From Schmidtea polychroa (taxonomy: Eukaryota), in contig CM097887.1 of NCBI GenBank assembly GCA_044892525.1, forward strand, positions 74,028,001 to 74,092,000: a DNA stretch of 64,000 bases. The letters are read 5' to 3'. Below, piece by piece: positions 6,892 to 40,247 of this stretch; the stretch's first letter is position 1; each line of letters begins with the position of its first letter. Under the pieces are notes generated by a model. The model did not search any database. It had not been told where the DNA came from and saw only the letters and a program-made list of their open reading frames with translations. The position numbers and the translations under genes were made by a program.

Positions 6892-8544
6892 GCCCATAAT
6901 CTAAAAAAAAATCAATAAATATATATTATAGGAAAAATGAAATTAAGTTAACATTGTCATATAAATGGCGACTCACCTCAACTGGTGTGCACACCAACGT
7001 ATATTATAGACAATGTTAACTTTCGCAGTTAGGTGTACAATGTAAATAAATCGTAGCCTTTGATTTAGCTCAGTAGAAATTATTTCCAACAGAAAACTAT
7101 AATTCCCAAATAGATTCCACCGCTATAAATAGATTAATTAGAAATTTAAAAATTAATTAATTATTCTTTAATTTTTTTTCAATTTTTTAAATATCTTTTC
7201 TTTTTAAATTTATTTTATATTTTTTTATCACTTTTTTAATTTTTTTGTACTTTTTAATAATTTTTATATATATTTTTTAATTTATTTTAATTATTTCAAC
7301 TAGGGGACCGAAATTAAAGACGGACAAATAGCATCTAGCGGTGGTCCACAAACCCGCTCGATTGCTCGATGATTATATTGTACACAGATACGCTAACTTT
7401 TCGCGAGTATTTACCCATTCGACACATTTCCAACTTTGATCATTCTGGTTTACACTGGAAACTGCACAAGGTGTTTAATGTTTATTACCTATAACCCAAC
7501 AAAATATTACTTTTTTAATTTGACATTGCGATTGTGTAACATCTAATTTAATAGTTTTGTGATTTCTTTTTTACAAGTTCCTGTCACTCTGTACGCGAAA
7601 CTATATATTAAATTTTAATTTTCCAGTTTTATATCAATGACAGAAATGCTGCCGTTGTAAACTATTTAACAAATTTCATCGGATGGTCATCTATTCAGAA
7701 ACATTTGTTCCAGATGTTTGCATTTGTCCAGTGTTTGATTTGTTTGGATCTAGTTTGGAAAATCTGTCTGACATTACTATCAGTGTTCCAGTTCCAAGAA
7801 CCTTTCCATTTTTCTTGAACCTTACCTTAAAGTTGTTTCTTCGAATCACAACATCTTGAAAATTATGCACATTATGCACATCCTTGCTGCAGCTGATCAA
7901 TAATGTGAATCCAAAAACAACAAGTGGTTAAACAACCCTTATCTCTCAGACATTGTGAGTGAGACTCTTGAATACTCTCGATCTCTTTTATTTTTCCCGA
8001 CCTGCAATTTATAAATTGATATCCAATCATGTCCTACCTGGCGCACTGAATCATTTGTTCGTTCGGACAGTTATGAGCTAAATAATTTTCGTTACAAAAA
8101 CATTTAATATTTTTCATATTTAAATTAAATTTTCTTTTTATATCGACTTATTGTCTTGAGTGAAATTCAATCAAATTCAATTCAACCTCTCCAATTGTTT
8201 CAAGTATATTTGGACCTTGATGTTTGACTTTGGCTGTCATCTCTTTAGGTAAAGTTTTATTGACGATGTTCCCCAATAGACATCCAGTATTGCCAGCCAA
8301 ATTTTTCATCTCCGATAAATAAATGATGATGCTTTTTCCAGCTTGAAATGACTTACTCATCAGTTCGTGGGAACAAACTTCTGAGAAATCACTAAATGTT
8401 CGAATTAATGCTTCCTTTGCTTATTCATGTTATTTCTTCATTTTGAAAAACCCCTTTCATTGAAATGAATGCCTTCCTTTTCAACGTATAGGGCAAAATC
8501 CTCTTTTTAATCATTATATCTATGGTATCGACATAATTAATCAA

Positions 8545-8738: not shown

Positions 8739-8789
8739 ATGGGAAAAATAATCAGTGGTGAAATTGGAAGAAATAAAAGTTCTTATAAT

Positions 8790-9880
8790 TGTTAGGTTCG
8801 ATGGGTATGTCTTCGAACTAACACAAAAATGTTCTATCTGACTCCACGTAAATAATTTATGCGCGTAGGTATAAATAAACAAGAAATATGATTTAAATAT
8901 TTATTTTTCAATTAAAAGATTATTCACACGTTTAAATAGATATATATATATATATAGGTACACCACGCTGCTTTCTCTAAGTATAGAAAACGGTTATTCA
9001 AACCGCCCTGAAGAGTGTTACTAAGTATCAAGGCTGGCCCTAAATGCGCCAACAGCCCGATATAGGTGAAAGGAAAAAGAGAACGGGACAATCACCAAAA
9101 TTTTCGCTATAGAGTTAACCCAGAAATTGGTTAACTCTTTTCAAATAATTATTGATAACGACACAACACAAAAATACGTGCTGACGTTATGATACCCCTT
9201 ATTTGAAATTACTTTAATTTGTTAAAATATAAACCGATTTGAAAATTACTTATAACTATTTAAATAATGATAAATACTAACTGATTTAATATCTTTACCA
9301 AATAACGTTATAATAGATAATCCACAAAATTAGCTTTCGATCCAATATTTCCAATACAAATTCTTCAATTTGATTGTCGATAAGACTAAATTCCCAAAAA
9401 TTCAAAACTAAATTTTCCTTTAATCGATGAAAATTATGCCAACTGTCACTTCGCCGAAAAATTAGTTTACGATAAAACCAAATTTCCCAAAATTCCAAAA
9501 CCTGACGAGAATTAGTTGGTTGCTAAAAATAGAATTGACTTCTTCTTCTCTAATTTCAGACACTGCGGTTTTCTGCCTTCTCACTTCGTCCCTCCTTCTA
9601 ATTTTTATCTATTATTTATACTAATTTATTTTACGTAATTCTATTAATAGTAATTGTTTAATTACTATTTTTATTATATATTTTAAATAATTTCTATAAT
9701 TCTATTTTTAGTAATTATTTATTACCAATTATATTTTAGTTTTAATTTTAGTATTTACTTTCTATTTTTGGTAATTTTAAAATACTATTTTTATTTTAAT
9801 CCTAATTTTGGTAATTAATTATTATTTTATTTATTATCTAATTTCGAACGTTTATTTCCGGTTCCTACTGAACCCCAACA
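8790..9880 (-). repeat. 3' LTR (1091 bp)
   Basis: Identical by eye to 22634-23738 except (TA)8 vs (TA)15. TGTT...AACA termini. Confidence 0.97.
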
Positions 9881-9882
9881 TG

Positions 9883-9892
9883 TCTTCCCCCT
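9883..9892 (-). promoter_or_regulatory. Polypurine tract (AGGGGGAAGA)
   Basis: Minus-strand purine run ending 2 nt before the 3' LTR. Confidence 0.8.
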
Positions 9893-10185
9893 AACAAGAT
9901 TTTCGTCCCGAAAATTAAAGCGGTAAAGGTAAGACAATTTGCAGCAGATACATAAAAAATAAAAATAAAATAAAATGAATCAACTGATTAAAATATATAT
10001 ATAAAGCAATCAAAGTCAAAATCAAAATAATCAAAAATTGTTAAACGAAATCAAGAATCAGATTAATCAAATGTTGTTCATAATGTCTATCAATTTGAAT
10101 ATCTGGATTGGATTGAGTTGTCGAAGGCGTTGGGATTGAGGACGTATAGCAAATTGCTAGGTCCATTGAACACATAGCCGAATTG

Positions 10186-12348
10186 CTAGTATTTTCTCCT
10201 TTTCATGACCTTGGCACTTTCGTTACGGATCCTTTGTTCTACAATGTCAGGTCTGTAACTGACCACCAAAGTCTCCCGTGTACTTACCTCTTTGTACACA
10301 ATTGAGGAGATGATATATGAGCCCTCATTAGCCTCCAATACTCCGTAATCGGGGAAATTGGATACGGCTACTTCATGGATTGGGCCTCCGTCGTATTCCT
10401 TGATACGCGGTTTCCATTTGCTGTCGGGTCTCTGCCACCAACTAGGATCTTCTCTGTCGAGATCTTCCCGTATTTTGATTGAGTTGCCCCTTCCGACGAA
10501 CTCGCCTTCCTTCACGATGATCGGCTCTCCTGTAATCGTGGGTTCACTCTTTGTTGCCAATATCTTGGTCAACGCGGGATCTGGTGGCTGATAGTGAGTT
10601 TCTAGGAGATTGTCATCCTCATCCTGGATGGATATCCTAGGCATTTTCTTTTTCGTACTCTTAGGAATCTCCTTTTTCCTTTTTGCGGAGATAGGGACAG
10701 TTTTCTCCTTGTCCTCTTTCTGGGGGAGTTTCTCCGTTGTTTTCTTTTTAAACTTCAAATCTTGTAGCTTAAGTAATGGTGCTACAGCTTGGGGTAACGT
10801 TCCTCCTTCTGCTCCTTGTTTGGGTTCACCCAACGGGGCCAATGCTTTCAGGATCTTGGTGACCCGTTCAACTAACTTTTCTGCTGGCTGTGGTTTGTCT
10901 ATTTCCATTTTAGCCGAATTCACCTCTCTACCGTCATTGGTAAGGGTGACTTGGAGGCAGTTATCGTCTGCACTCTCACAAGTGGCATAGTCGTCTTCAT
11001 CAGCAATTGAAATGGCTGGCGGCGACAAGGAATCTTCTTCCACTATTTTCAACAACTTTGACCTGGGGATATCTTCTTTCACATAGCTCTCCATAGCTAG
11101 AGGTTTCTGCCTGCTTGAGGTTCCGGGTTCCATCTGCTTTATTTGTGAAGACACCACCTCTTTCCGGGTGTCTGGTGAAATGTCATCAACCCAGATATCT
11201 CGTAAATTGTCGTAAATCTCCTTAATGGTTGTGACATCATTCTCCGTTTGTAGGTCCGAGAAGTGATGTGCCTCTTTACCGGTGACTGCTTTTGCTAGAT
11301 ATGCCAAACGGTAATACCCGTTGCATTTCTTTAGTTCCCTACTTTCGAGGCATTTAGCTGCGCCTAACTCACGAATTCCGAGTGCGCGCTGCATTGGGAA
11401 TCTGATTACTTCTAATAGGTCCTTTACTAGTAATCCCACGATGATCTTCCCATCGCAGATTTTTCTAATTCTTTCGGCACAGTCTTCTCCGTCGAACTGT
11501 CCTGTTATTTGTTTCTCGGTCATACCATGCGCATGCGATTGGTAATGTTTGACCTGTGCTCTGGGGGTGACTCTCGTGTTGAGTATTAGATCACCATTGA
11601 AGTGTGAGATCGAGATGGCCACGATTGCCGGTTTCAAAAATTGTCGTAATGTAGCGTAGTGAGCTGCTACGAAGATGGTGAGGTTATCCTCTTGTCTAGG
11701 GTCCATGCGCTGTCTAACGAAAGACTTGAATGTTTTAATGTCGTTATCGTTGACATTATATGTCCAGTTTGGGTCATTAACCCATCTCGTTTGTGTTTCT
11801 CTGTGAGGTTCCAGAATTTCCATTGCTATGATGGTATCTATACCTTCACATAACAGTGAGATGTTCTTTTCCCTTCCATCCCCGTTTTCTATCTCGAGGG
11901 TTGTGTGCTTTTGCAGCAAAATGGGGTTTGTGGCGCCAGGAACATAAACCGTAAATGGTTTGTTAATGGCGTGTATCCACAGGTGGTTGGTCAGACTATG
12001 TCTGCCAAACTCAGGCATGACATCGGTAAGCCTAATACTACCGTTATGCTTACCCGGGATTCTTGAGATGATCATTTGACGCTTTGGGGCCTCGTCAAAT
12101 TTAAAATTATTGGGTATGCCTGAACAATGACCGTAAAACCAGTGCCTTTGGCCTTTTCTACTTTGCTCCATAACCTGCTTCTCCAGGTTTTTATAAATAA
12201 GTTTTTCTTTTAGTAAGGTTGTAGCACGTATAATGCTATGTTTTCCTTGATATTGGGATATTGGGTGGCTCTGCATTCCTGAAATAAAAATCATTAACCA
12301 TAATATCAGATATACTGATATGCCATAATAGGCTAAAAAGATATGCAT
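10186..12348 (-). CDS. Accessory ORF (720 aa): N-terminal hydrophobic segment, DEDDh exonuclease-like domain (about 11190-11685, catalytic residues degenerate), long acidic/basic tail
   Basis: Intact 720-codon ORF inside the element. AISISHFNGDLILNTRVTP...VKHYQSHAHGMTEKQI...KICDGKIIVG...RLAYLAKAVTGK...ENDVTTIKEIY follows the ISG20/REX4 sequence pattern. Confidence 0.7.
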   Translation of the reverse strand: MHIFLAYYGISVYLILWLMIFISGMQSHPISQYQGKHSIIRATTLLKEKLIYKNLEKQVMEQSRKGQRHWFYGHCSGIPNNFKFDEAPKRQMIISRIPGKHNGSIRLTDVMPEFGRHSLTNHLWIHAINKPFTVYVPGATNPILLQKHTTLEIENGDGREKNISLLCEGIDTIIAMEILEPHRETQTRWVNDPNWTYNVNDNDIKTFKSFVRQRMDPRQEDNLTIFVAAHYATLRQFLKPAIVAISISHFNGDLILNTRVTPRAQVKHYQSHAHGMTEKQITGQFDGEDCAERIRKICDGKIIVGLLVKDLLEVIRFPMQRALGIRELGAAKCLESRELKKCNGYYRLAYLAKAVTGKEAHHFSDLQTENDVTTIKEIYDNLRDIWVDDISPDTRKEVVSSQIKQMEPGTSSRQKPLAMESYVKEDIPRSKLLKIVEEDSLSPPAISIADEDDYATCESADDNCLQVTLTNDGREVNSAKMEIDKPQPAEKLVERVTKILKALAPLGEPKQGAEGGTLPQAVAPLLKLQDLKFKKKTTEKLPQKEDKEKTVPISAKRKKEIPKSTKKKMPRISIQDEDDNLLETHYQPPDPALTKILATKSEPTITGEPIIVKEGEFVGRGNSIKIREDLDREDPSWWQRPDSKWKPRIKEYDGGPIHEVAVSNFPDYGVLEANEGSYIISSIVYKEVSTRETLVVSYRPDIVEQRIRNESAKVMKRRKY

Positions 12349-12471
12349 GAGTCTTCTAAAAGATCTACATATGCTGAATTTTAATGCTACCTGGAGCTCT
12401 ACGTAAATATAGATTTTAATATATATATAAATATTTATATATGATTTTTCCCTCGGGGGAGTCTGTAATTG

Positions 12472-13527
12472 TCATAATTGCGACATCAGTACTCCATCGT
12501 AAGCCCTTATGGCTTGTCTAAAATATAGCTTGGTCCAAATACCCATAGCTATCAGTGTAGTTACTAGCGATAGTACGGCCGATACCGTAATCCATACCCC
12601 TATGGGTATTTTCAGAATATATCCAACATTAAAGTTCGTGATGGCATTACAGTCACAACAGTTTGTCAGATTTGGGGGCGTTTGGCAAGATATTTGTTGG
12701 ATAGGTGGCAACTGTCTAAGATGTTGCCACATTGCGGGATGTATCACCATGTTCTCCTTGACGACTTTTGGTGGTGTTTTCGTTATAACAGGTTGTCTCA
12801 GAGGTAATATCTCCTCAAATACCTCGAACCACCTATCGTCCTCCCGTTTCCTCGGACTATAGTATATAACTAGAACCGAATATTCTACGGACTGATTTAG
12901 ATACATTTCTTGGGAGGGGGAGTTCTGATCTAACCATAATGTTCCTCTCGTGGTAGATCCGTCTAGAATGCTGATTTTCACCTTCTCCTCCCTGTTAATT
13001 TGCTGGCTAAACTTTACTTTCTCCTTCTCGTAGGATATCGATATGCGATTTGTGAAATCTGCCGTCCGTAGGATCCAATTAGATACGTGATAGGTATACC
13101 ACCCACTCTGATATAACTTTGATGCTGCAATATGCAGTTTATAATCCGTCTCGGCTTTTAAATCATATAAATCCCACTCTTTTTCTTCTGAATCGAGTTG
13201 GCGGACCCGCAAGTACTTGTTGTAGAAATGTAAACTGAATTTTGTGGCATTATCGCACGTTGTCAGAATGCTAATTCCGTTATACGTTCTTATAAAGTGT
13301 AAATGTTTCACTTGCATCGCCATAGGCTGAAAGTATGCCTTTCTATCCCTTTTTGCCATTGCCAAAGTCATCATACAGCTTATTATTAACAAAAAGGTTA
13401 CCGATTTTGGAACACCCCTTGATCTCAATGGGTATCGGTGTTCTTGTGGTTTTTCGGTAGTGTTTGGTTTCACTTGTTTTTCTGGTGCTTTTACTTTTGG
13501 ATTTCCAGAGGCTCCCTTTGTTGAGAT
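12472..13527 (-). CDS. Type I membrane protein (signal-like segment 13404-13354, FN3-like ectodomain motif, TM 12603-12535), in frame with integrase behind a TAA
   Basis: RYPLRSR then SVTFLLIISCMMTLAMA|KRDRK; LYDLKAETDYKLHIAAS; Cys cluster CQTPPNLTNCCDC; TM IGVWITVSAVLSLVTTLIAMGIW. The frame is open from the integrase stop onward. Confidence 0.75.
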   Translation of the reverse strand: MSTKGASGNPKVKAPEKQVKPNTTEKPQEHRYPLRSRGVPKSVTFLLIISCMMTLAMAKRDRKAYFQPMAMQVKHLHFIRTYNGISILTTCDNATKFSLHFYNKYLRVRQLDSEEKEWDLYDLKAETDYKLHIAASKLYQSGWYTYHVSNWILRTADFTNRISISYEKEKVKFSQQINREEKVKISILDGSTTRGTLWLDQNSPSQEMYLNQSVEYSVLVIYYSPRKREDDRWFEVFEEILPLRQPVITKTPPKVVKENMVIHPAMWQHLRQLPPIQQISCQTPPNLTNCCDCNAITNFNVGYILKIPIGVWITVSAVLSLVTTLIAMGIWTKLYFRQAIRAYDGVLMSQL

Positions 13528-14600
13528 TTAGCACTTTTTACACCGATTAGCATGCACCATTATTGGTTCTGCTTTTCTGTTGGCCACCAGTTGTAATATG
13601 AGATTTGTATCCGTGGTTCTCAATACCTCATATGGCCCTTTGAAATTTCGCATGAGTTTTGGTGATAAGCCTTTCTTGTTATAATGACTTTCCAACATCA
13701 CCTGGTCTCCAACCAATATACCATGATCCTTGGCTTTTCGGTCATGATAATCTTTGGATGCCTCCTGATTATATTTTATACTGAGGCCTGCTCTAGCCCA
13801 TGCTTCCTGCATTCTTTCCCGCATTTCCATTAGATAATCTTGCTGATCCAAGTACTGTGTTGCTTTAGGAAAAAACAACAGATCTACTGGCATTTTACTT
13901 TGTCTCAAATACATTAGGTAAAATGGTGTTTCACCTGTTCCTTCGTGTACTGCATTTCTATATGCAAATAAACAGGATGGAATGTGGATATCCCAATCCG
14001 TTTGCCCTGAATTTACATATGATGCTAACATATTAGCTAATGTTCCATTAAATCGCTCTACTAGCCCATCCGTCTGTGGGTGATATGGGGAAGTGTTCAA
14101 CTTTAAAACTCCGAAATAATCATTTATTCCTTTGAGCAAATTACTCATGAAATCAGCTCCCCGATCCGTTAATAGCTTCGTAGGTACTCCATACCTAAAG
14201 ACAATTTGTTCAACGAAAATTCTAGCTATCGTATCAGCTTTGTGATTAGGTATCGGGTAGGCTTCTGGCCACTTAGTCAAGTAGTCACAGAACACTAAGA
14301 TGTACTTGTTTCCGCTATTGGATTCTTTAAATGGCCCCAACACGTCCATTGCCGTCATTTCCATAGGTGTAGATGGTACTGGCATCGGCTTCATTGGCAC
14401 GTGTGGTTTCTTTCCGGTATTTCTTCTGGTGATACAGATCTTACATGTCTGACATCAGGTTTTAACTTCTTGTTTCATGCCGGGCCAAAAATATTTTTGT
14501 TTTAACCTTGACAATGTTTTTCTGGATGACAGGTGGCCTCCTAAGGCTCCATCGTGATACTGCAACATGAGTGCTTCACGGTATTTCTTAGGGACCATTA
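13528..14600 (-). CDS. Integrase (HHCC zinc finger, DDE core, GPY/F), split by an in-frame TGA at 14455-14457
   Basis: YHDGALGGHLS...EVKT*CQTCKIC; TAMDVLGP, LTDRGADF, DGLVERFNGTL; FKGPYEVL. 14454-14401 is an open 18-codon in-frame link. Confidence 0.95.
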
Positions 14601-17600
14601 CAACATTGTCTCTTACATCTGAATATTTGACTAATCCTTCCTCCAGCACAAACTTGTCCTTATTCTTTTCCCAGTATTTCGTGAATTCTGTGGGCACGTA
14701 TTTCGCTTCTAAGGCTTGTCGAATGACATTGATTTCTTCGTCAGCTTTTTGTGCCTCCATTAAATCAGCTAGCCGGTTGGCTTCTCGAGTCAGTGTGAAG
14801 ATAGTCCCTTCGAGACGTCCTTCCTTCACATCTTCTGCCTCCTCCTCCTGGTCCATTCTTGATAAAGCATCTGCATTTCCATTGTGATCTCCTTTTCTAT
14901 AATGGATTTCTATGTCATATGGCTGTAGAATTAATGCCCATCTGACCAGTTTTGATGTATCCATTGTGTGTTTCGTCAACCACTGTAATGGTCTATGATC
15001 GGTATACACTATGATCTTTCGACCCCATAGATAAGTCCTAAACTGGGTTATTGCATACACAATTGCTAAAGCCTCTAGTTCTATCACTGCGTAGTTTCTT
15101 TCATGCGGTTTTAATCCTCTGCTAGCGTATGCAATTGCATACTCATCTCCTAGGTCATCTCTCTGACCTAGCACAGCACCTATGCCCCGAGTGCTGGCAT
15201 CTGTCATAACCAAAAATTGTCTCTCAAAGTCTGGAAATCGCAATATAGGTGGCTTGATGAGTTTTTCCTTGAGCATATCAAATGCTTCTTGCTGTTCTGT
15301 TCCCCACACAAATTTGACATTTTTGCCTTCTAACTGCGTGAGTGGAAAAGCTATAACCGAAAAGTTTCTAATGAATTTTCTGTAGTATCCAACTAGACCT
15401 AAAAACCCTTTGATATGTTTAACGGTTTTAGGCTCCGGGAAATTCTTTACCTTTTCGACATTAGCTGGGTCGGGTTTAACCCCGTCTCGTGATATGATAT
15501 GGCCAACATATACCACTTCTGGTTCGGCCCATTTACATTTGGTCGGTTTCACTTTCATGTTGGCGTTAATCAACCTCTTGAACACATCTTCCAAATGTTC
15601 CAAGTGTTTTTCCAAATTTGGCGAGAATACTATAACGTCGTCAATGTATACCATCGCATGATGTACATCCATGAGCATCAAATTCATTGCTCTTTGAAAT
15701 GTGGCTGGAGCTCCGGTGAGTCCAAATGGCATTACGTTATATTCGTAATGACCCATACTCGTAGAAAACGCTGTTATTGGTATAGTCTCATCTTTTAGCT
15801 TAATTTGATAAAATCCCTTTTGGGCGTCCATTACTGAGAAGAACCTAGCGTTTCTCATGCGTCCATAGATATAATCTAACAATGGCAATGGATGGCTATC
15901 TTTGCATGTTGCTTCGTTAACCATGCGATAGTCGTTACATAATCGTACTGATCCATCCTTCTTGGCCACCACTATCATTGGTGATTGATATGGTGATTTA
16001 CTATGCCTGATTATGCCATGTTTTAACATCAGTTTCACCTGTTTATCTACTGATTCCTCCAGACTGAATGGAATACGGTATGGTCTCAACTTTATAGGTT
16101 TTGTATTGGTGAGAACAATCTCATGTTCTAACAAATTTGTCTTTCCCAGATCATATTCATGTTTCGCGAATACCTGGTCATATTTCCTCAATAACATATT
16201 TACTTGAATATTTTCTTTTCTAGTTAGCACTTTGCTGTTTACTGTAGGTGCATCGTAGTACTCAATGTCTGGATCTCTTTCTTCTGCCTTTACGGTGAGT
16301 ATTGACCCTTCTCCCGTAGCTTGTGGTTCGTTTTGTTTCCAGATTCTGCCCACTCTGGTATCTGGATATAAGTAAAGTGGTTTAATGTCCAGATTGGCTA
16401 CCCTGATTGGTATTCTGCCATTGACTATTAAACCTACGCTATGCGTTACTGGTATATTGTATTTCTCCGAGAATTTTTCGTTTGGTTCGAATACAACTTC
16501 ACCTTCCCAATTATTGCTTGTAGCTACAAAGCAAACTGTTTCCGCTCTGGGTGGTATGATAGTTGTATGATCTATATAAGCTGTATCATCATTGTAAATT
16601 TTTCTCTTTTTACCTCTCGCTCGGATTAACAATCCAGATGCACAGTCGAATACTACTCCTCGTAGTCTTTTTAGGATGTCCATACCCAATAGGCATTCGG
16701 CTGGGAGACTTCTCATCACTATGATGTCGTGATGGAGTTCCTGGTCGCATAGCTTAATCTGGCAGGATAATGATCCTATTACGTTTAATGAGGATCCGTT
16801 CGCTCCTGTTAATTTTACTCCTGCCGGTTTTAGCGACTGCAGTTCATGATGGTTTAACAATTTAGCTTCAATTATGGTACCGTCTGCTCCTGAGTCTATC
16901 ACCGCATTAACTGTATGTCGGTTCACTCTTATTTTTATCATTGGTTTTTTTTCCAAGTTCACTGGGTTATTGACCATCAAGATAGTATCGTGCGAGATAC
17001 CGATTGTATTGGCTCTCGTTTGTTCTGCTTCCAGTAATTCAGGATCACTCAGTTGGGGATTATACTCTTTGAATTTAGCTTTAATTGACTCTAACACTTC
17101 CTTTGGATAGTGCACTTTAAGTAATTCTGGCAATGTTGAGCATGTCAAATTATTAAATATGGTATCTTCACCGATTTTCCATTGGTGTCGTCCTGTTCTG
17201 AGTGTTGTTTCCCTCGAGTGTTCCCGCCCTTCGTTTGGTGCGGATGGTAAACTCCTCAAAGTTGGCAATTGTACGTATCTTGGACTTCTCTTGAATCTGG
17301 GTGACCTTATGTCGAATTTTTGGTCGGAACTGTCATATTCTCCTTCTGAGGACTGTTTTCTCACATAGATTTCCTTTGATTGGTCATATGGAGGAAGATA
17401 TTCCTTGAATCTCGATTTTCTTTGTTGCTGATTCGGTTTTTTGTTGTAGTTCTGTTTTCGTGATTGATTTGATCTTGAAGATGTCTCACGAGAGCCTCCA
17501 TTACCTCCTCCCTTTGAATTGTTATCGTCCCGATAACTCGAATACTCCTCCATTTCTGTTCCAATTACTTCATGTTTGACCAAATGTTTCTGTCTAATTT

Positions 17601-20600
17601 CTTTAATTTCCTTTCTGTGATGTTTGAATAATGCAAACTCTGCACACATAGGACATAGTCCTAATAGCAATTTCCATGACCATCCCCCAATTTTGAATAT
17701 GCTATATGTTGACATCAGTTGTGTAATTATCAGCTTTAAAATTACAAATATTGCGTAAATTCCTGAACAACCAGCAACGAAAATACCAAAATTGGTAAAT
17801 CGTCCCCATATTTTCATCATTACGTTCTTTGCTGCTTCTTTATAGTGTTCCGGTCCAAATAATAGATTGTAGTCTGGTCGTATCAAATTATCATGATAAA
17901 TTGTTCTTATAATTTCCGTGATACCTCTGTCTCTAATTTGTGGGAATAGCAATGTCCTTCTTGCTTCCTCGATATCGTCGGGAGTGTAAATCCCTCCTTT
18001 TGCTAAATCGTCTAATGACTTAAATTCCAGATTATCCTTTAATTTAGTTACCTCCAGGGTCTCTACCCGTTGTGTAGATGGTTTTCTTTCCGGCAGAGAT
18101 ATCCACATGTCATTTATTTTATATAATGGTGATATTGCCGGGTTGCATATAGCTGGTTGAGGTTTAGCGTTTTCCTCAAGTAACTTTCTGGTTACTGGCA
18201 TAACAAATCTCAATTTTCCTTGGTAAGACACTGGCAGTTCTAGAGTGCATTGATTAAATCTGGCTAATTGTACTTCCACTGGTTTACACTCATAGCTATA
18301 TATAGCTTCTCCCATGATTCTGCCAAACATTCCATCTTCCAATAACATTGGAGTAACCAACTCTGGGTTAACGATAGATATTGCTAGTCTATTTCGGACT
18401 ATTTCACGGTTTAGCTTGCAATCGTTTAGTATCACCTCTTGATACATATCTTGCATTTGTCCTTGCAAATCATGATATAAATAATCTACCTTATTATTTA
18501 TATAATTCGTGATTTTGATATCCTTTACATGTAGGACCTTGGAATTCCGGATATATTCTCTGGACAGGAAAATTCCTTTGTAGTTCGTCTCGTATACTCT
18601 TTTCCCACATTTAGTCCTTTTATCTTTTCGGACAAATCGAATTGCTTCCGTCTTGTCTTCCGATATCAATACTAGAGGTGTGTTTTCCTCTCCGATATCT
18701 TCCTTCTCTTGTTTGTTGATTTTCTTCAACGTTTTTGCTTTATCCCAAACCTTTTCTGGATTCTGGGAGTCCCGATATTTAGTTCCATTTAATTTTCTAA
18801 AAGGAATTTTCTTGAGGAAAGCCAACTCACAATGATCTCTCATTTGTTCGTAAATTAACGTAGTGGTTCCCGTTTTACAACTACCGAACTTGGCATTGCA
18901 TTGCGGATGTGCCATCAATTTTCCTGTGGCCACATCGAATGTTCCCTCGTATTCTCGTAGCTCCACTGAGTAATCTTCTATGTCTACCACATAGGAAACT
19001 AAATTGCTACCGCGAATTTTCTTTCTACCTTCGCATGTTCCGTCTGAAGCGATTGTTCCTCCTCGGGTGATTGTTATTCCCAAGGTTTTCCCAATTTCTG
19101 CTGAAATTGATACCTCGTTGTCTATCCTCACACTTCCTTTTCGAAATGCATCTAAGCAATCTTCGGGCATTATGTTTACCGGCCTTGGTATTAATGTTGC
19201 GGTTAGAAAAGCAGAATAGCTATTACTACCGCAATAATATTCGAACGTAGCTCTCTGAACTCTACATTCCTTTATCGTGGTTCTATAAAATTCACTCTCT
19301 TGGTAGACATAATATTCTACCTTTTCCCCTTGATGAACCTTCTCGGGGTACGCCTCTTTGCACTCAATTGCATCTACTAGCGAATATACCCGAGATAGTT
19401 TAGGGTTTCCACAGTCAAATACTGTTAATGAATTTGTTTGTTTTAATATGCCCATCATCACTAGGAACATCAGGATCATGCTTGTCATGTTTCCTGTGCC
19501 TGGACTACCATTATTTATGGCTTCTTCTACGACTTCAAATCGTGGTTTTGGAATCGTTTCTTTTTCCCAAAATTTGTTTACGGTCATCCATACCTCCAGG
19601 TAATAATCTACCATTTCGACTATTTGATCGATTTCTCGTTCTATAAGCCTTTTATCATCCCCTATCCGGGCCAAGGCATTTTGAATTAACAATGATAAAG
19701 ATGTTACCACTTTCCCTCTTGTTAACCCTTGCTGCACGAATGCTTCTATGACATCCTGGGTATCTCTTGTTGTTACATCTTTGGATACTCTGTCCATTGT
19801 CTTCTTGACCTCTTTTGTTATTTTCTTTACTTCGATCCCCTTGATTTTTGGAATTCTCCATTCGGGCCTGATAATCCCGATCATTTGTTGTATACGTTGC
19901 CACAATAACGACCTTTCTGCTGTTGTCTCATCTCCCGCCTGGTCGTCCATTTCTTGAGCTATCCCTGCTAATGTTTTTAACTGAATTTTCCGAATCGTTT
20001 CCGGATTTAACTGCTCCTTGGGTGGAGGTTTCATCTGATCCTTTCTAGGACGTCCTCGTGCATCTTTTTTCACTTTCTCCGGAGGTTTTTCATTCTCCAG
20101 ATTTGTTACTGCTTGTGACGTAGTAGCTCCTACGTTTGTTTCTCCTGGGTTTAATCTGATGTATTCTGAGAAGTAATCTTCCTCGTCAATGTCCACCATT
20201 TGACAGGGATTAATTTCCTCTAGTCTTATTTCCTCAATTTCTTCCGCAATTTGGTTTGCTATATCTGGCAGTCTCATTAATGACCACTGGGACTCTGGTG
20301 GAGTTACTGGGATGATCATTACCGTGGTTGTTGCCAGCGGTAGACAACCCACATCCACTAAATATTCATCGTCATCCACTTGCCTGCCATGGACCATTAT
20401 CAGGAATATACCTGTAGTCTGATCGGTGGCAATTACATCTCTCCTCAATATTTTAACCTTGATATAGCAATTATAAATCATTGTTAATGGTTCTTTTCCC
20501 ATCATTCGCACGTCTAGATTAATGTTGCCTTGTCTATCAGGCTGACTTCGGATAGCTTTCCCATTTTTCCTCATCAGCGCTTCAATTTGCGTCTGGAATG

Positions 20601-21882
20601 GGCTTGTTTCCTTTACCACTGGTAGTATAAGTGGAATTATTGCTTCCAACAAATCTACTGGTATACGCAATACTAACATCCAGTCAAGTATTTCCTTTAT
20701 AGTTTCTCCATCTCGTGGAGATTTCTGCAATTCCAACCCTAGTCGCTGGGTTAATTGTTGGGTTTCTTCCAATCTCTCTATTTCCATTTGAGTAATCAAG
20801 AATACGCTATCTTGATCCATTACTGCTACTGGCTTCTGTGCTCTCTTTGCTATGAGCTTTGTCACTCTACCTGGGAGTATCCCGTTCTGTAGAAGTGTTT
20901 GATTTGCTTCTAATTTTACTCCACATAAGTATAAGTCATATCCTTGATGCTTAATACTTGTCAATGTTTCCTTTAATTTATCGGCTCGACTTCTTACATT
21001 TATATCGAGATTATACTCTTTATCCTGTGGGAGTTTTATATTGAGCTGGGCATCTTGGAGATCCCACTCATGTTCCAAGAGTTTTCCTAATTTCCTTAGG
21101 ATTTTGTACGTGTCGTTATGATACTTTGGATCATCTTCGACCTGCGATATCAGTTTTACTACTGTATCGATTTCGTGAATTTTAATTTCTGTTTCTCCCA
21201 ATTTTCCCAATTGTCTGGCCAGCTTCTGCTGGTACTCATATCTGGAATCCACCAGTTTTAAACATTTTGTTAGGGTATCTGACCCTTCTTTTACCTTTGC
21301 TTTCCCTGTCAAGGTTCTATCGAACTCGCTTAGTATGGTGGCCATACTAGGTTCATCATCGGAACTCTCCTCTGATTCCGTTTCCTGAAGGTCCTCTCTA
21401 ACGGAGTCCTTTTTTCTGAGATACTCATCTCTTCCAACTTCTACCATGAAGATGGTGCCTTCTTGGTCGGTCAATCTAGCCAACCTATTCTTTTCTTCCT
21501 GGATTTCCATTTCCAGTTGTTGCAGATACGTTAACCCTTGATCCTGGTTAACCATGAAAGTTGTCTTAGACTTGTTCACATTACCCTTATCGGTATTTTT
21601 TTTGAACTGACTCGTGTTTCCACTCTGGTTCTGAGGACATGACCTCATCATATGTCCGAATTTCCCACATCCGTGACATTTTATCTTTCCTGATGAATTT
21701 ACATCATCTCTTTTGATTGTACTAAAATTATTGCTGTTCTGAGGACTTCTAGTCTTGCAGACCGCAGCAACATGTCCCTTTCGCTTACATTTTTCGCATT
21801 GCAAATTCTGCACTCTACAATTTTCCGCACTGTGGTTATTCCGTCCACATTTGGTACATTGTATACTTTTACGATTGTCCAT
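14455..21882 (-). CDS. Gag(NC)-X-Env-Pol polyprotein: 3 intact CCHC knuckles, UBL, unknown region, glycoprotein, aspartic protease (VIDSGA, about 16900), dUTPase-like linker, RT (VYIDD, about 15640), RNase H (TDAS, about 15200), start of integrase
   Basis: 2475-aa ORF with canonical Gypsy motifs PYRIP, LCNDYR, MPFGL..APATFQRAM, YIDD, GFLGLVGYYRKFI, TDASTRGIGAVL, TDHRPL, NADALSR. Confidence 0.95.
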   Translation of the reverse strand: MDNRKSIQCTKCGRNNHSAENCRVQNLQCEKCKRKGHVAAVCKTRSPQNSNNFSTIKRDDVNSSGKIKCHGCGKFGHMMRSCPQNQSGNTSQFKKNTDKGNVNKSKTTFMVNQDQGLTYLQQLEMEIQEEKNRLARLTDQEGTIFMVEVGRDEYLRKKDSVREDLQETESEESSDDEPSMATILSEFDRTLTGKAKVKEGSDTLTKCLKLVDSRYEYQQKLARQLGKLGETEIKIHEIDTVVKLISQVEDDPKYHNDTYKILRKLGKLLEHEWDLQDAQLNIKLPQDKEYNLDINVRSRADKLKETLTSIKHQGYDLYLCGVKLEANQTLLQNGILPGRVTKLIAKRAQKPVAVMDQDSVFLITQMEIERLEETQQLTQRLGLELQKSPRDGETIKEILDWMLVLRIPVDLLEAIIPLILPVVKETSPFQTQIEALMRKNGKAIRSQPDRQGNINLDVRMMGKEPLTMIYNCYIKVKILRRDVIATDQTTGIFLIMVHGRQVDDDEYLVDVGCLPLATTTVMIIPVTPPESQWSLMRLPDIANQIAEEIEEIRLEEINPCQMVDIDEEDYFSEYIRLNPGETNVGATTSQAVTNLENEKPPEKVKKDARGRPRKDQMKPPPKEQLNPETIRKIQLKTLAGIAQEMDDQAGDETTAERSLLWQRIQQMIGIIRPEWRIPKIKGIEVKKITKEVKKTMDRVSKDVTTRDTQDVIEAFVQQGLTRGKVVTSLSLLIQNALARIGDDKRLIEREIDQIVEMVDYYLEVWMTVNKFWEKETIPKPRFEVVEEAINNGSPGTGNMTSMILMFLVMMGILKQTNSLTVFDCGNPKLSRVYSLVDAIECKEAYPEKVHQGEKVEYYVYQESEFYRTTIKECRVQRATFEYYCGSNSYSAFLTATLIPRPVNIMPEDCLDAFRKGSVRIDNEVSISAEIGKTLGITITRGGTIASDGTCEGRKKIRGSNLVSYVVDIEDYSVELREYEGTFDVATGKLMAHPQCNAKFGSCKTGTTTLIYEQMRDHCELAFLKKIPFRKLNGTKYRDSQNPEKVWDKAKTLKKINKQEKEDIGEENTPLVLISEDKTEAIRFVRKDKRTKCGKRVYETNYKGIFLSREYIRNSKVLHVKDIKITNYINNKVDYLYHDLQGQMQDMYQEVILNDCKLNREIVRNRLAISIVNPELVTPMLLEDGMFGRIMGEAIYSYECKPVEVQLARFNQCTLELPVSYQGKLRFVMPVTRKLLEENAKPQPAICNPAISPLYKINDMWISLPERKPSTQRVETLEVTKLKDNLEFKSLDDLAKGGIYTPDDIEEARRTLLFPQIRDRGITEIIRTIYHDNLIRPDYNLLFGPEHYKEAAKNVMMKIWGRFTNFGIFVAGCSGIYAIFVILKLIITQLMSTYSIFKIGGWSWKLLLGLCPMCAEFALFKHHRKEIKEIRQKHLVKHEVIGTEMEEYSSYRDDNNSKGGGNGGSRETSSRSNQSRKQNYNKKPNQQQRKSRFKEYLPPYDQSKEIYVRKQSSEGEYDSSDQKFDIRSPRFKRSPRYVQLPTLRSLPSAPNEGREHSRETTLRTGRHQWKIGEDTIFNNLTCSTLPELLKVHYPKEVLESIKAKFKEYNPQLSDPELLEAEQTRANTIGISHDTILMVNNPVNLEKKPMIKIRVNRHTVNAVIDSGADGTIIEAKLLNHHELQSLKPAGVKLTGANGSSLNVIGSLSCQIKLCDQELHHDIIVMRSLPAECLLGMDILKRLRGVVFDCASGLLIRARGKKRKIYNDDTAYIDHTTIIPPRAETVCFVATSNNWEGEVVFEPNEKFSEKYNIPVTHSVGLIVNGRIPIRVANLDIKPLYLYPDTRVGRIWKQNEPQATGEGSILTVKAEERDPDIEYYDAPTVNSKVLTRKENIQVNMLLRKYDQVFAKHEYDLGKTNLLEHEIVLTNTKPIKLRPYRIPFSLEESVDKQVKLMLKHGIIRHSKSPYQSPMIVVAKKDGSVRLCNDYRMVNEATCKDSHPLPLLDYIYGRMRNARFFSVMDAQKGFYQIKLKDETIPITAFSTSMGHYEYNVMPFGLTGAPATFQRAMNLMLMDVHHAMVYIDDVIVFSPNLEKHLEHLEDVFKRLINANMKVKPTKCKWAEPEVVYVGHIISRDGVKPDPANVEKVKNFPEPKTVKHIKGFLGLVGYYRKFIRNFSVIAFPLTQLEGKNVKFVWGTEQQEAFDMLKEKLIKPPILRFPDFERQFLVMTDASTRGIGAVLGQRDDLGDEYAIAYASRGLKPHERNYAVIELEALAIVYAITQFRTYLWGRKIIVYTDHRPLQWLTKHTMDTSKLVRWALILQPYDIEIHYRKGDHNGNADALSRMDQEEEAEDVKEGRLEGTIFTLTREANRLADLMEAQKADEEINVIRQALEAKYVPTEFTKYWEKNKDKFVLEEGLVKYSDVRDNVVMVPKKYREALMLQYHDGALGGHLSSRKTLSRLKQKYFWPGMKQEVKT
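17626..19488 (-). CDS. Embedded envelope glycoprotein domain, chuvirus (Jingchuvirales) G / herpes gB-like class III fusogen
   Basis: Internal signal-like MILMFLVMMGILKQTNS|LTVFDC, Cys-rich ectodomain, GEAIYSYECKPVEV...CTLELPV...RFVMPVTRKL...CNPAISPLYKINDMW, GGIYTPDDIE, C-terminal TM FGIFVAGCSGIYAIFVILKLII. The family call is recalled motif similarity, not a search. Confidence 0.8.
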
Positions 21883-21927
21883 AATTTTCCTACTGGTACA
21901 ATCTTTCGCTATATGCCCTTTTCTATG

Positions 21928-22533
21928 TCAATTGAAACACTCTACCGGTGTTCTTTCACTGTTTACCAGGAACATGGTTGACTTTTCCAAGCTGCTTTCA
22001 ATTACGACAGCTTTCCGTGTCAATTCGTCAAAATCGTCGCTAGTATGTAATATTAGAGCGTTCCTCATTGTAGGAGTAAGTCCTGCCCATAGCTGATCCT
22101 TAACTAACAATTCTGTTGGCTTTGCCCATGTGGTTTTTGGTCCAAATGCTCTTTCAGCAATTAAAGATAGCTGGTGTGCAAATTCCCCCACATGTTCATT
22201 GGCATTCTGTTTTCGATGGTAAAATTGTTGTCTAAATATTCTTCCCGCATCTCCGGGCAATATTCGAGCAGTCATTTGTTCTCTCATTTCGGCCCATGTT
22301 TTCGGTACTTGAGCAACTGGTAATGCCATAATGTCATTATATTTTTCTCTTGCCAGCCCCTTCAAATATATAGGCAGCCTTTGTATCATGATATTATCTG
22401 GATAGGCGTATGCTTTGGCCATCTGATAATATTCAGACATAAACTCTGGGAATTCTCCCGGATCACCGCTGAATGCCTTTACGGGCAGAGCGGGATATCT
22501 GGCAAATGCATTTACATTAGCTTCCTCTGCCAT
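21928..22533 (-). CDS. Gag capsid domain (retrotransposon gag), ending at an in-frame TGA inside the first zinc knuckle
   Basis: PVKAFSGDPGEF...LPIYLKGLAREKY...RKQNANEHVGEFAHQL...DQLWAGL. Reading on through the stop gives CFN*HRKGHIAKDC, in frame with 21882. Confidence 0.9.
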   Translation of the reverse strand: MAEEANVNAFARYPALPVKAFSGDPGEFPEFMSEYYQMAKAYAYPDNIMIQRLPIYLKGLAREKYNDIMALPVAQVPKTWAEMREQMTARILPGDAGRIFRQQFYHRKQNANEHVGEFAHQLSLIAERAFGPKTTWAKPTELLVKDQLWAGLTPTMRNALILHTSDDFDELTRKAVVIESSLEKSTMFLVNSERTPVECFN

Positions 22534-22610
22534 TTGATTTTCCAGTTTTACTCTGGTTCTAGTTCCTAACGCTATTTTGTTTTAATTCAATATATACCCG
22601 CTGATAATTT

Positions 22611-22630
22611 GAATCACGTCGGGCTCACCA
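22611..22630 (-). promoter_or_regulatory. Primer-binding site complementary to the 3' end of tRNA-Trp
   Basis: Minus strand TGGTGAGCCCGACGTGATTC, 3 nt after the 5' LTR. The complement GAATCACGTCGGGCTCACCA matches the metazoan tRNA-Trp 3' end (…AATCACGTCGGGGTCACCA) with 1 mismatch. Confidence 0.85.
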
Positions 22631-22633
22631 AAA

Positions 22634-22781
22634 TGTTAGGTTCGATGGGTATGTCTTCGAACTAACACAAAAATGTTCTATCTGACTCCACGTAAATAAT
22701 TTATGCGCGTAGGTATAAATAAACAAGAAATATGATTTAAATATTTATTTTTCAATTAAAAGATTATTCACACGTTTAAAT

Positions 22782-22816
<35 letters not shown>

Positions 22817-23738
22817 TACACCACGCTGCTTTCTCTAAGTATAGAAAACGGTTATTCAAACCGCCCTGAAGAGTGTTACTAAGTATCAAGGCTGGCCCTA
22901 AATGCGCCAACAGCCCGATATAGGTGAAAGGAAAAAGAGAACGGGACAATCACCAAAATTTTCGCTATAGAGTTAACCCAGAAATTGGTTAACTCTTTTC
23001 AAATAATTATTGATAACGACACAACACAAAAATACGTGCTGACGTTATGATACCCCTTATTTGAAATTACTTTAATTTGTTAAAATATAAACCGATTTGA
23101 AAATTACTTATAACTATTTAAATAATGATAAATACTAACTGATTTAATATCTTTACCAAATAACGTTATAATAGATAATCCACAAAATTAGCTTTCGATC
23201 CAATATTTCCAATACAAATTCTTCAATTTGATTGTCGATAAGACTAAATTCCCAAAAATTCAAAACTAAATTTTCCTTTAATCGATGAAAATTATGCCAA
23301 CTGTCACTTCGCCGAAAAATTAGTTTACGATAAAACCAAATTTCCCAAAATTCCAAAACCTGACGAGAATTAGTTGGTTGCTAAAAATAGAATTGACTTC
23401 TTCTTCTCTAATTTCAGACACTGCGGTTTTCTGCCTTCTCACTTCGTCCCTCCTTCTAATTTTTATCTATTATTTATACTAATTTATTTTACGTAATTCT
23501 ATTAATAGTAATTGTTTAATTACTATTTTTATTATATATTTTAAATAATTTCTATAATTCTATTTTTAGTAATTATTTATTACCAATTATATTTTAGTTT
23601 TAATTTTAGTATTTACTTTCTATTTTTGGTAATTTTAAAATACTATTTTTATTTTAATCCTAATTTTGGTAATTAATTATTATTTTATTTATTATCTAAT
23701 TTCGAACGTTTATTTCCGGTTCCTACTGAACCCCAACA
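22634..23738 (-). repeat. 5' LTR (1105 bp)
   Basis: Direct repeat of 8790-9880. The 14-bp length difference is entirely in the TA microsatellite. AATAAA on the minus strand at 22744-22749. Confidence 0.97.
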
Positions 23739-24368
23739 TAATAATAATTAATCCAATTTATAATAATTTATTATAATTTTCATATTCTCTCCATCGAAAT
23801 CTTCTAATATGTCTAAATAATATATTATCTCACTCGGATAGCTTGTAAGATCTATTAGAAATTATTAATTATAAAAACACACTTTTTTAAATTTCTAATT
23901 TTCTATCAGCTACTTATTTAAACAAACTTAATTATTTATTTCTACACCTAGCATCCAAGTGGAGTACAAATTGATCTCTGTCAATGTGATATTTCTTTGG
24001 AAACCAACGCTTATAACTTTTTAGAAACATTTAATTGCATTGCAAGATCTCTCATAGAACCTTTTATCTTTCCATAACGCTTACATAACATAAAATTCCG
24101 TACGTCCCGAATCGCCTAAAAGGGCAAATATAGACAAAAATTTCATTTTTAGTATTAACTCATTTCCTGCTAAATTTATTTTTATCTTTTTTTTCAAATA
24201 ATATTAATTATATATAATAATTATTTACTAAAAAAAGAATTTAATTTTATTACGTTAATTAATATTAATCAAAATTAAAATTAATTAATATTAATTAAAA
24301 TTAAAATTAATTAATATTAATTTAGATAAAAACTTAATCAGTTTTCATACCAATTAATTAATAATTAA

Positions 24369-39700: not shown

Positions 39701-40247
39701 CTATTAATTAAATATGATCAATTAAAGCTATTCGTTGATGGAAAGTATCTGAAGAATTTCTGTACCGTTGAAATGGCATTCCAGCAATCAACAATTTCTC
39801 TGATAATAAAATCATCCAATAAAATGTTTGAAAAAATACAATTAATGATTTCAGCCAATAAAATGAGTTTCGGAATCGATCGGTACGGAACTCCTTACAC
39901 AATAAAAACCGAGTACGATTATTCTCCAAATAGTGTTCTGATTAAAATGAACTCGTCATTTAAACAGTTGTCAAAATTCACTCTTCATGTTCAACCGAAT
40001 CAAATCAAATTGGAACTCAACGAATTCCACCAACAAATCGACTATATTCTCACCCAACACCATGTCAAACTTATTTCCATAAACAACTTCCAACCAATCC
40101 GCTATATACTCTGCGAAGTTCTTATTGAAAATCCCAATAATGCCATGTGGAAACTGACTGTTGATTCTTTCGACACGGTATCGAAAATAAAATTCACAAA
40201 CGATAAATTAAGTTTTGAAAATCGAAACAACTATTTCCGTGTCCGGT
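24734..40247 (+). repeat. First unit of a tandem segmental duplication (visible part; partner is 48487-64000, offset 23,753 bp)
   Basis: All ORF-track entries recur at exactly +23,753. Only scattered substitutions and no net indel were seen. Confidence 0.97.

Follow-up and report, generated by a model that had tools for sequence, protein, structure and literature searches.

An env-bearing Ty3/Gypsy element of Schmidtea polychroa with an apparently undescribed 3' module encoding a second membrane protein and a nuclease-fold protein

The window, a stretch of 64,000 nucleotides from Schmidtea polychroa (GCA_044892525.1, contig CM097887.1, positions 74,028,001 to 74,092,000), contains an LTR element whose two 3' genes are designated X and Y. 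The features located are the following.

8790-23738, minus strand: whole LTR element, about 14.9 kb
22634-23738, minus strand: 5' LTR, 1105 nt
8790-9880, minus strand: 3' LTR, 1091 nt, same as the 5' LTR except for an AT microsatellite
8786-8789, twin at 23739-23742, no strand: 4-bp target site duplication (TSD), TAAT
22611-22630, minus strand: primer-binding site (PBS), tRNA-Trp(CCA)
9883-9892, minus strand: polypurine tract (PPT)
21630-22533, minus strand: gag capsid and zinc knuckles (PF03732, E 5e-4; PF00098), premature stop at 21928-21930
20815-21060, minus strand: ubiquitin-like domain 1 (profile match)
20293-20520, minus strand: second ubiquitin-like stretch, recognised by eye and conserved in both L054 and L058
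17695-19488, minus strand: env, with signal peptide, predicted class III (gB/chuvirus-type) fusogen ectodomain and anchor (17695-17799), in frame inside ORF1
14910-16947, minus strand: protease (PR), dUTPase-like spacer (by eye), reverse transcriptase (RT), RNase H
13531-14595, minus strand: integrase (IN), premature stops at 14455-14457 and 13528-13530
12475-13416, minus strand: X, with signal peptide (13354-13416), predicted FN3/Ig-like ectodomain, anchor (12532-12627) and short tail; last part of ORF1
12466-12474, minus strand: ORF1 stop UGA followed by CAAUUA, a CARYYA readthrough motif
12277-12471, minus strand: 65-codon stop-free in-frame linker, ending with a small hairpin, a T-rich tract and AG before Met 12276
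11790-12276, minus strand: Y domain 1, AlkB/2OG-Fe(II)-type double-stranded beta-helix fold without conserved metal triad
11179-11703, minus strand: Y domain 2, ISG20-like DEDDh exonuclease fold, one of five catalytic positions canonical
10186-11178, minus strand: charged low-complexity tail of Y, then a C-terminal domain with no family assignment; stop at 10186-10188

The structural hallmarks of Ty3/Gypsy (Metaviridae) elements, namely TG...CA LTRs, PBS, PPT and TSD, were all found, the last three as an earlier note on this DNA had reported, and the Gypsy-type domains follow the order PR-RT-RNase H-IN that Ty3/Gypsy requires. The 20 nt of the PBS match the 3' end of the host genome's own tRNA-Trp(CCA) genes. 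The LTRs, previously described as identical, differ by 14 nt of the AT microsatellite and by no substitution. Matches to env in the host genome numbered 67, at 92-100%, indicating a family of at least 67 copies, and X and Y gave 130 and 68 matches, respectively; 55 of the 67 env matches are followed on the same strand by X within 8 kb. The PBS pattern gave 261 matches, which include tRNA genes and hence provide no copy number. The family is young, and so is this copy, as the earlier note proposed, but the copy is defective.

A single frame of 12.3 kb runs from the gag ATG (22533) to 10186, so that the coding region of this length noted earlier does exist as one frame, but four stops interrupt it before its end. 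Three of these are premature and specific to this copy: 21928 falls in the first zinc knuckle of gag, 14455 in the zinc-binding domain of the integrase (present in 0 of 18 sister copies), and 13528 after the integrase (0 of 17 sister copies). The family has continuous gag, env and pol frames, and five of the 67 env matches are held in open frames of at least 3300 aa; in this copy the frames are broken, and its description as structurally complete does not stand for gag and pol. The fourth stop (12472) is the true end of ORF1 in the family. An altered genetic code was ruled out, as the stops are a mixture of TGA and TAA and sister copies lack them.

The four non-standard modules listed in the earlier note were all recovered. 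The fusogen in the interval between gag and protease matched Pfam PF24664 (E 5e-87) as a sequence profile only, and by this profile env is a class III (gB/chuvirus-like) fusogen. A two-sequence profile of the first ubiquitin-like domain matched NEDD8 (E 0.0012), and all 60 matches listed belong to the ubiquitin family. The counterpart of the second ubiquitin-like stretch in L054 and L058 matched UBX (E 0.006); the stretch in the window had no match of its own in profile and sequence searches, and a PDB sequence search with env and this stretch gave no useful match. The second membrane protein is X, with its signal peptide and anchor, and the exonuclease-like protein is Y, with ISG20-type profile and fold matches.

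The X/Y module is kept in five other lineages: X and Y are present in L040, and the order IN-X, then Y, recurs in L047, L052, L053 and the distant metagenome element L058, whose RT is 55% identical to that of the window. Among 15 sequences, pN/pS was 0.04 for IN, 0.12 for Y, 0.07 for the exonuclease part of Y and 0.17 for X. The three premature stops, together with the mosaic of subfamilies that makes up this copy, might point to a one-off chimera, a misassembly or neutral captured DNA. This explanation has next to no probability, being opposed by the 130 X and 68 Y genome matches and by contigs from two public runs that cover all 30 bins, and refuted by the purifying selection and by the same layout in the unrelated contig L058. 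The presence of the extra domains in sister copies and distant lineages, on which the earlier note had made the question of a chimera depend, therefore shows that the element is no chimera. The anatomy, conservation and purifying selection of the element, and the folds of the two Y domains, are taken as established.

X is fused downstream of the integrase in the same ORF, and its signal peptide and single anchor, the pattern of a type I membrane protein, were likewise found in L047, L052 and L058. An FN3/Ig-like ectodomain is suggested by a model of low confidence (pLDDT 44; best Z 7.1 with rmsd 2.4 over 62-67 aligned residues); matches in an atlas search scored 0.86-0.90, with FN3 receptors and FNDC proteins as look-alikes, and a Pfam search of X gave no match. 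Between families X varies more than any other part, with 32% identity as compared with 63% for env and 86% for IN. Positive selection on X was excluded, since pN/pS was 0.15-0.21 across all its parts.

The model of Y (pLDDT 95) aligned with ISG20 (Z 18.6, rmsd 2.8, 161 aligned; Foldseek E 2e-9), and the Y family profile matched ISG20L2 (E 2e-31). With the two-domain model as query, domain 1 resembled, in fold only, ALKBH3/6/7 and prolyl hydroxylases (Z 9.6-10.6 over 135-149 residues; for ALKBH6, Z 10.6, rmsd 4.9, 145 aligned). The metal triad of AlkB/2OG-Fe(II) dioxygenases has the motif HxD/E...H. No such triad was seen in domain 1 by inspection, where one His column reaches 50%, and an atlas search with this domain gave only scores below 0.83. 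Neither word-index protein searches at near lengths, which also included the X of L052, nor a search of viral contigs returned a relative. In the window four of the five catalytic residues of domain 2 are lost, whereas all five are kept in 31 of 57 scorable Y rows; the other 26 keep two or fewer. By tree topology, the clade that includes the window Y comprises 10 rows (support 98/99). The exonuclease domain of the window Y is degenerate yet under purifying selection.

At the ORF1/Y junction, UGA-CAAUUA with an in-frame spacer of 126 or 129 nt was found in all 18 sister copies examined, and the same junction occurs in L040, L048 and L049, against a background of 15 in 7901 stop-like triplets. 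A known 3' motif, its conservation and an open frame downstream, the marks of a readthrough site, are thus combined here, with no significant RNA structure downstream of the window stop (z 0.11 and -0.52). In L058 the stop reads UGA-CGG, with a stem-loop from about 8 nt on (z -3.2); UGA-CGG plus a stem-loop is a type II readthrough signal (PMC3542737). In L047, Y lies in the -1 frame behind a candidate -1 slippery site, G_GAA_AAU, and a modest stem-loop (z -1.7). We infer recoding from three different textbook signals at one homologous junction; L050 and L051, which have no alignable junction, are outside this comparison. The natural linkers are free of stops, which is rare by chance, since shuffled linkers were stop-free in 8, 15, 2 and 2 of 3000 cases; in L058 only 22 codons separate the ORF1 stop from the first Met, and 300 of 3000 shuffles were stop-free. 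At the amino-acid level the linker shows no conservation (29 non-synonymous versus 7 synonymous codons), the linker contains hydrophobic stretches that bear on the membrane side a fused Y would reach, and in L049, a decayed copy, it has an in-frame stop (by eye). Recoding is not universal, because in L052 and L053 ORF1 closes with two stops and Y begins 260-410 nt further on at its own Met. A special UGA-suppressor tRNA-Trp was ruled out, the 5-bp anticodon stem being normal.

These signals make it quite likely that a few ribosomes get beyond the ORF1 stop, by readthrough in the window and L058 and by -1 frameshifting in L047, so that Y is appended and a rare, membrane-tethered X-Y product results. 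Y may also start from its own Met, and an origin of Y exclusively from its own start (12276), on an RNA made by splicing, trans-splicing or an internal promoter, would make the stop contexts and open linkers incidental or parts of promoter or splice elements. Most homologous proteins do begin at a Met near this position, an acceptor-like T-rich AG precedes the Met by 2-4 nt in four of five lineages inspected (window, L040, L047 and L052, not L053), a hairpin lies just upstream in the window and, with one pair swapped, in L047, and a CCAAT-like box is common to the gaps of L052 and L053. Nevertheless, three lineages each combine a long open linker with a textbook recoding signal that differs from one lineage to the next. 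Both routes could operate side by side, and the exclusive origin appears improbable. Contigs of four runs contained no joint at the acceptor-like site 12278 among the matches listed. The loose ends with poly-T that run X7 showed (17612, 21202 and 21211) were too weak for use.

In the favoured reading, translation of the genomic RNA would give a single polyprotein of about 3,350 aa with two passages through the ER membrane. Env and X would be released by signal peptidase, and the element's protease would cleave the cytosolic portions at a border motif that occurs seven times at domain junctions, thereby producing Gag, Env, Pol and X in equal amounts. X is tentatively proposed to be a fast-evolving attachment or adhesion protein that most likely accompanies the fusogen at the surface of the particle or cell. 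Y may ancestrally be a 3'-5' nuclease trimming RNA or ssDNA, with its active site retained in many relatives, and the window-lineage Y could be a pseudo-enzyme, its best candidate role, held with some reserve, being to bind and shield the element's nucleic-acid ends from host nucleases or small-RNA defence. Recoded Y is degenerate in all lineages seen (window, L040, L047 and L058), whereas separately started Y is intact (L052 and L053), a pattern which hints that a nuclease may have turned into a tethered decoy. Alternatively, X and Y might act on the host cell rather than in particles. X would then be a decoy resembling a cytokine receptor, or an adhesion protein, on cells expressing the element, Y would suppress RNA surveillance in the cytosol, and spread may be intracellular or cell-to-cell. 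The receptor-type look-alikes of X and the host-modulating cargo of the Burro element (PMC6431247, in excerpt) would fit this alternative, but env and X would be released from one polyprotein and hence be equally abundant, and env, X and Y are retained together in a copy that lacks pol (L052); neither point is decisive, and we regard the alternative as rather unlikely.

GAG-ENV-POL errantiviruses with a gB-type env have been catalogued for Platyhelminthes, Bryozoa and Nematoda (PMC13524379, Chary and Hayashi 2026), and planarian Burro/GYPSM1 has a ubiquitin/SUMO-like domain and an env that lies between gag and pol in the same frame (PMC6431247, in excerpt). The layout that the earlier note considered possibly undescribed is thus published as regards the in-frame env, whereas the X/Y module was not found in print in the available portions of these sources. 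Smed_errantivirus_1-6 (PMC13524379) share gene order, fusogen type and many young copies with the window element; by hand count, 67 of the first 100 env residues match the printed row of Smed_errantivirus_4, and the L052 env resembles Smed_errantivirus_1 by eye. However, the window element belongs to none of the families listed there, and the six Smed rows give no PBS, in contrast to its tRNA-Trp PBS. The terms fibronectin, AlkB, exonuclease, accessory and readthrough are absent from the main text of that paper as far as it was available. Burro/GYPSM1 also shares the single polyprotein and a dUTPase-like PR-RT stretch, but exceeds 30 kb as against 14.9 kb with 1.1-kb LTRs, bears MATH, BIR, BCL2 and ankyrin cargo with no Pfam match in the window element, and is described in section 7 of the excerpted account without X, Y or recoding (PMC6431247).

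In the bdelloid rotifer elements Juno/Vesta a DEDD nuclease was likewise captured 3' of pol, but their ORF3 is of the DEDDy/RNase D class with intact residues and env is lacking (PMC5408684), whereas the window Y is of the DEDDh/ISG20 class, fused to an AlkB-like domain, catalytically degenerate and accompanied by env and X. An orchid Ty3/Gypsy element also carries an AlkB-type fold, an m6A demethylase that is functional and recognisable by sequence (PMC9289625, in excerpt), unlike Y domain 1, a fold-only match without conserved metal triad. SIRE1 expresses an env-like ORF by stop-codon suppression and shares an extra ORF past the stop at the end of pol (cited in PMC2829016, in excerpt); it is a plant Copia element with an env-like product, whereas the window element has its env further upstream and would make a nuclease-fold protein in this way. 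CARYYA and UGA-CGG plus stem-loop signals are shared with viral type I/II readthrough (PMC3542737, PMC4132726), but unlike SIRE1 and the viral cases the recoding signals of the window element and its relatives differ between lineages. The listings of literature searches included no account of X, Y or ORF1/Y recoding, and the 3' module of X and Y is apparently undescribed.

In conclusion, the copy is probably a recently inserted, defective member of an active Ty3/Gypsy family that belongs with the gB-type errantiviruses of gag-env-pol order, a grading that covers the whole explanation, including the 3' module and its mechanism. A wider view, held as doubtful, is that of a widespread invertebrate retrovirus-like lineage that joins a class III fusogen to an FN3-type attachment protein cut from the integrase tail and to a tethered AlkB/ISG20-fold counter-defence pseudo-enzyme, whose dose is set by separately evolved recoding of two readthrough kinds and one frameshift. 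Herpesviruses and paramyxoviruses separate attachment from fusion. The catalogued gene order would become a complex genome plan with accessory genes, likened to those viruses, and the abundance of the family in the host genome makes it matter for genome annotation. Three recoding signals at one junction would offer a natural experiment on the tuning of accessory-protein dose, and a captured ISG20 look-alike, active and dead in sister lineages, would provide a way into the means by which retroelements of regenerating animals counteract RNA defence.

The element has the anatomy that the earlier note had described, with its long terminal repeats (LTRs), TAAT repeat, primer binding site (PBS), polypurine tract and Pfam domain series all present, as follows.

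8790-23738, minus strand, the element
22634-23738 and 8790-9880, minus strand, LTRs, whose sole difference is the length of an AT microsatellite
22611-22630, minus strand, PBS, 20 nt matching the 3' end of tRNA genes in the host genome, Trp(CCA) by ARAGORN
9883-9892, minus strand, polypurine tract
both sides of the element, flanking repeat TAAT

A single frame with four internal stops runs from 22581 to 10186, and in it Pfam identified gag, a zinc knuckle, a Monjiviricetes fusion glycoprotein (E 5e-87), protease, reverse transcriptase (RT), RNase H and integrase (IN), in this order. Hydrophobic stretches mark out the env anchor and both ends of X, the protein after integrase. The description of the element as complete was wrong for the window copy, because its frame is interrupted; it is this copy that is defective and not the family, its three premature stops being private.

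The env query matched at least 67 places in the host genome at 92-100% identity (67 scored among 3079 candidates), five of them inside open frames of at least 3300 aa, the length from gag through X. X was found at 130 places, and Y, the protein encoded 3' of the ORF1 stop, at 68. X lay no more than 8 kb downstream of env in 55 of the 67 matches and no more than 40 kb in 59, in a pairing that used 126 of the 130 X rows and left out four short second fragments. Nineteen sister 3' regions were taken from the best-scoring matches, which biases them to well-kept copies, and junctions were read in 18, L029 being omitted since its X match ends early and its Y lies in a different frame. The stop at 14455 was present in 0 of 18 sisters and that at 13528 in 0 of 17, whereas all sisters read keep the stop at 12472, and ORF1 is therefore gag-UBL-env-PR-RT-RH-IN-X.

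In 15 equal-length sequences, from which five sisters were excluded over indels or length, pN/pS was 0.04 for integrase, 0.17 for X, 0.12 for Y and 0.07 for the Y nuclease fold. The nearest sister of the window copy differs between IN, X and Y, and thus this copy is a recombinant. X subfamilies about 8% apart in DNA (window 12475-14454 against the sisters L021-L039) occur in free combination with the IN and Y types, making the elements mosaics by module.

The ORF1 stop of the window, with the six bases after it, is UGA-CAAUUA. The same holds for 18 of 18 sisters, whose spacers measure 126 or 129 nt, and for the diverged L040, L048 and L049, which form one subfamily, despite drifted flanks. CARYYA is a readthrough motif that is active after UGA too, according to the available parts of PMC4132726 and PMC3542737, and it follows 15 of the 7901 stop-like triplets of the window. 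CAATTC, one base off this motif, follows the Y stop (window 10180-10188, minus strand) and is not found in L047, a separate family. The distant metagenome contig L058 has UGA-CGG at the ORF1 end and, about 8 nt further along, a stem-loop (z -3.2), a type II readthrough signal, and in L047 Y lies in the -1 frame and overlaps the ORF1 end, with G_GAA_AAU upstream of a stem-loop (z -1.7), GGA being a tolerated slippery-site variant (both in the available part of PMC3542737). The linkers are stop-free in the Y frame over 65, 66, 85 and 96 codons, against 8, 15, 2 and 2 per 3000 shuffles, in tests picked after sequence inspection and with window and L040 related; their remaining two frames hold 2-15 stops each, and their amino acids show no conservation. 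Functional recoding at this junction is, on these sequence features, probable. Alternatively, or possibly alongside recoding, Y may have a separate message, since most homologues start at a Met near 12276 and an acceptor-like tract precedes this Met in four of five lineages. Also against recoding, ORF1 and Y are not joined by an open link in the diverged lineages L052 and L053, and no significant RNA structure was found behind the window ORF1 stop. A small palindrome or hairpin before the acceptor-like AG (window about 12297-12313, minus strand; L047 about 7511-7526), with one base pair swapped between the two families, could be an RNA structure or paired GATA sites.

The layout of IN-X followed by Y is old. 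L047 carries env-PR-RT-RH-IN-X and then Y in the same genome, at identities to the window of 63% for env, 73% for RT, 86% for IN, 32% for X and 43% for the Y nuclease, and L052 and L053 share the 3' tail (env 43%, IN 64%). L058, reached via the homologue P0016, has a single 3184-aa frame from gag to X, then Y, and the same PBS as the window (RT 55%, env 48% identical); the X of L058 does not align with that of the window (18%, score 33), yet follows the same signal-ectodomain-anchor plan. One copy (L052 2134-5499, minus strand) has an in-frame env-X fusion with pol deleted, then Y with intact catalytic motifs, and is possibly a non-autonomous env-X-Y element. The genome holds at least 91 more Y-like loci, 26-37% identical to the protein P0012, mostly within open frames of about 490-530 aa.

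X consists of a signal peptide, a beta-rich ectodomain of about 240 residues, a single anchor and a short tail. Its single-sequence model was poor (pLDDT 44), with the better part matching FN3/Ig sandwiches at Z no higher than 7.1, and an atlas search returned FN3 receptors (scores 0.86-0.90), so that a putative FN3/Ig-like ectodomain is a lead rather than a proof. For Y, 93 relatives emerged from a search of 1.84 billion proteins with a two-sequence profile, many of them matching RNase_T; the ten checked came from Logan, ENA, JGI or MetaClust under uninformative names. In the model built from a 71-row alignment (pLDDT 95), the C-terminal half resembles ISG20 (Z 18.6, rmsd 2.8, 161 aligned; Foldseek E 2e-9; profile E 2e-31), and the N-terminal half AlkB homologues and prolyl hydroxylases (Z about 10), with no conserved metal triad in the alignment of relatives. 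The five catalytic positions could be scored in 57 of 71 rows; all five residues are retained in 31 rows and two or fewer in 26, with one in the window; by eye, the motifs of L052 and L053 are complete.

Novelty of the env-between-gag-and-pol layout, which the earlier note had left to a database check, was lost to published work. The available parts of the sources describe Burro, with env in frame between gag and pol and SUMO-like and dUTPase-like domains (PMC6431247), and nine Platyhelminthes elements of the gag-env-pol kind (PMC13524379); the closest catalogued relatives are planarian. The main text of PMC13524379 had no match for fibronectin, AlkB, exonuclease, accessory or readthrough. Available parts of other sources report DEDDy ORF3s in rotifer elements (PMC5408684), orchid Gypsy elements that carry an AlkB domain (PMC9289625) and SIRE1 stop suppression (as cited in PMC2829016). 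Literature searches found nothing on the X-Y module, which Repbase, GyDB, Grohme 2018, figures or the authors' repository may annotate. The apparently new part is the X-Y module with its candidate recoding signals.

Beside the element, window 24728-64000 holds a tandem duplication, 99.8% identical across 15.5 kb, of a vitellogenin/apolipoprotein-type gene (5277-codon open frame 29210-45043; Vitellogenin_N, VWD, C8), which is either a very recent event or an assembly artefact, and window 1447-2022 (plus strand) an exon with a Fascin domain (PF06268, E 1e-20). Among the matches listed, a long tRNA-Trp(CCA) tandem array of 284-bp period (L057) extends from G000:C4:55022433 onward; the pattern matched 856 times genome-wide, 838 on one strand. 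The tRNA of this array is the primer tRNA of the element, and we take it to be a plausible UGA reader.

The fast divergence of X suggests that it may act in attachment or adhesion beside the fusogen. A single polyprotein would cross the ER membrane twice, env and X would be released by signal peptidase, and the element protease would cleave at a motif that recurs seven times at domain borders. Occasional recoding would append Y, tethering it as a binder without catalytic activity that may shield the nucleic acids of the element.
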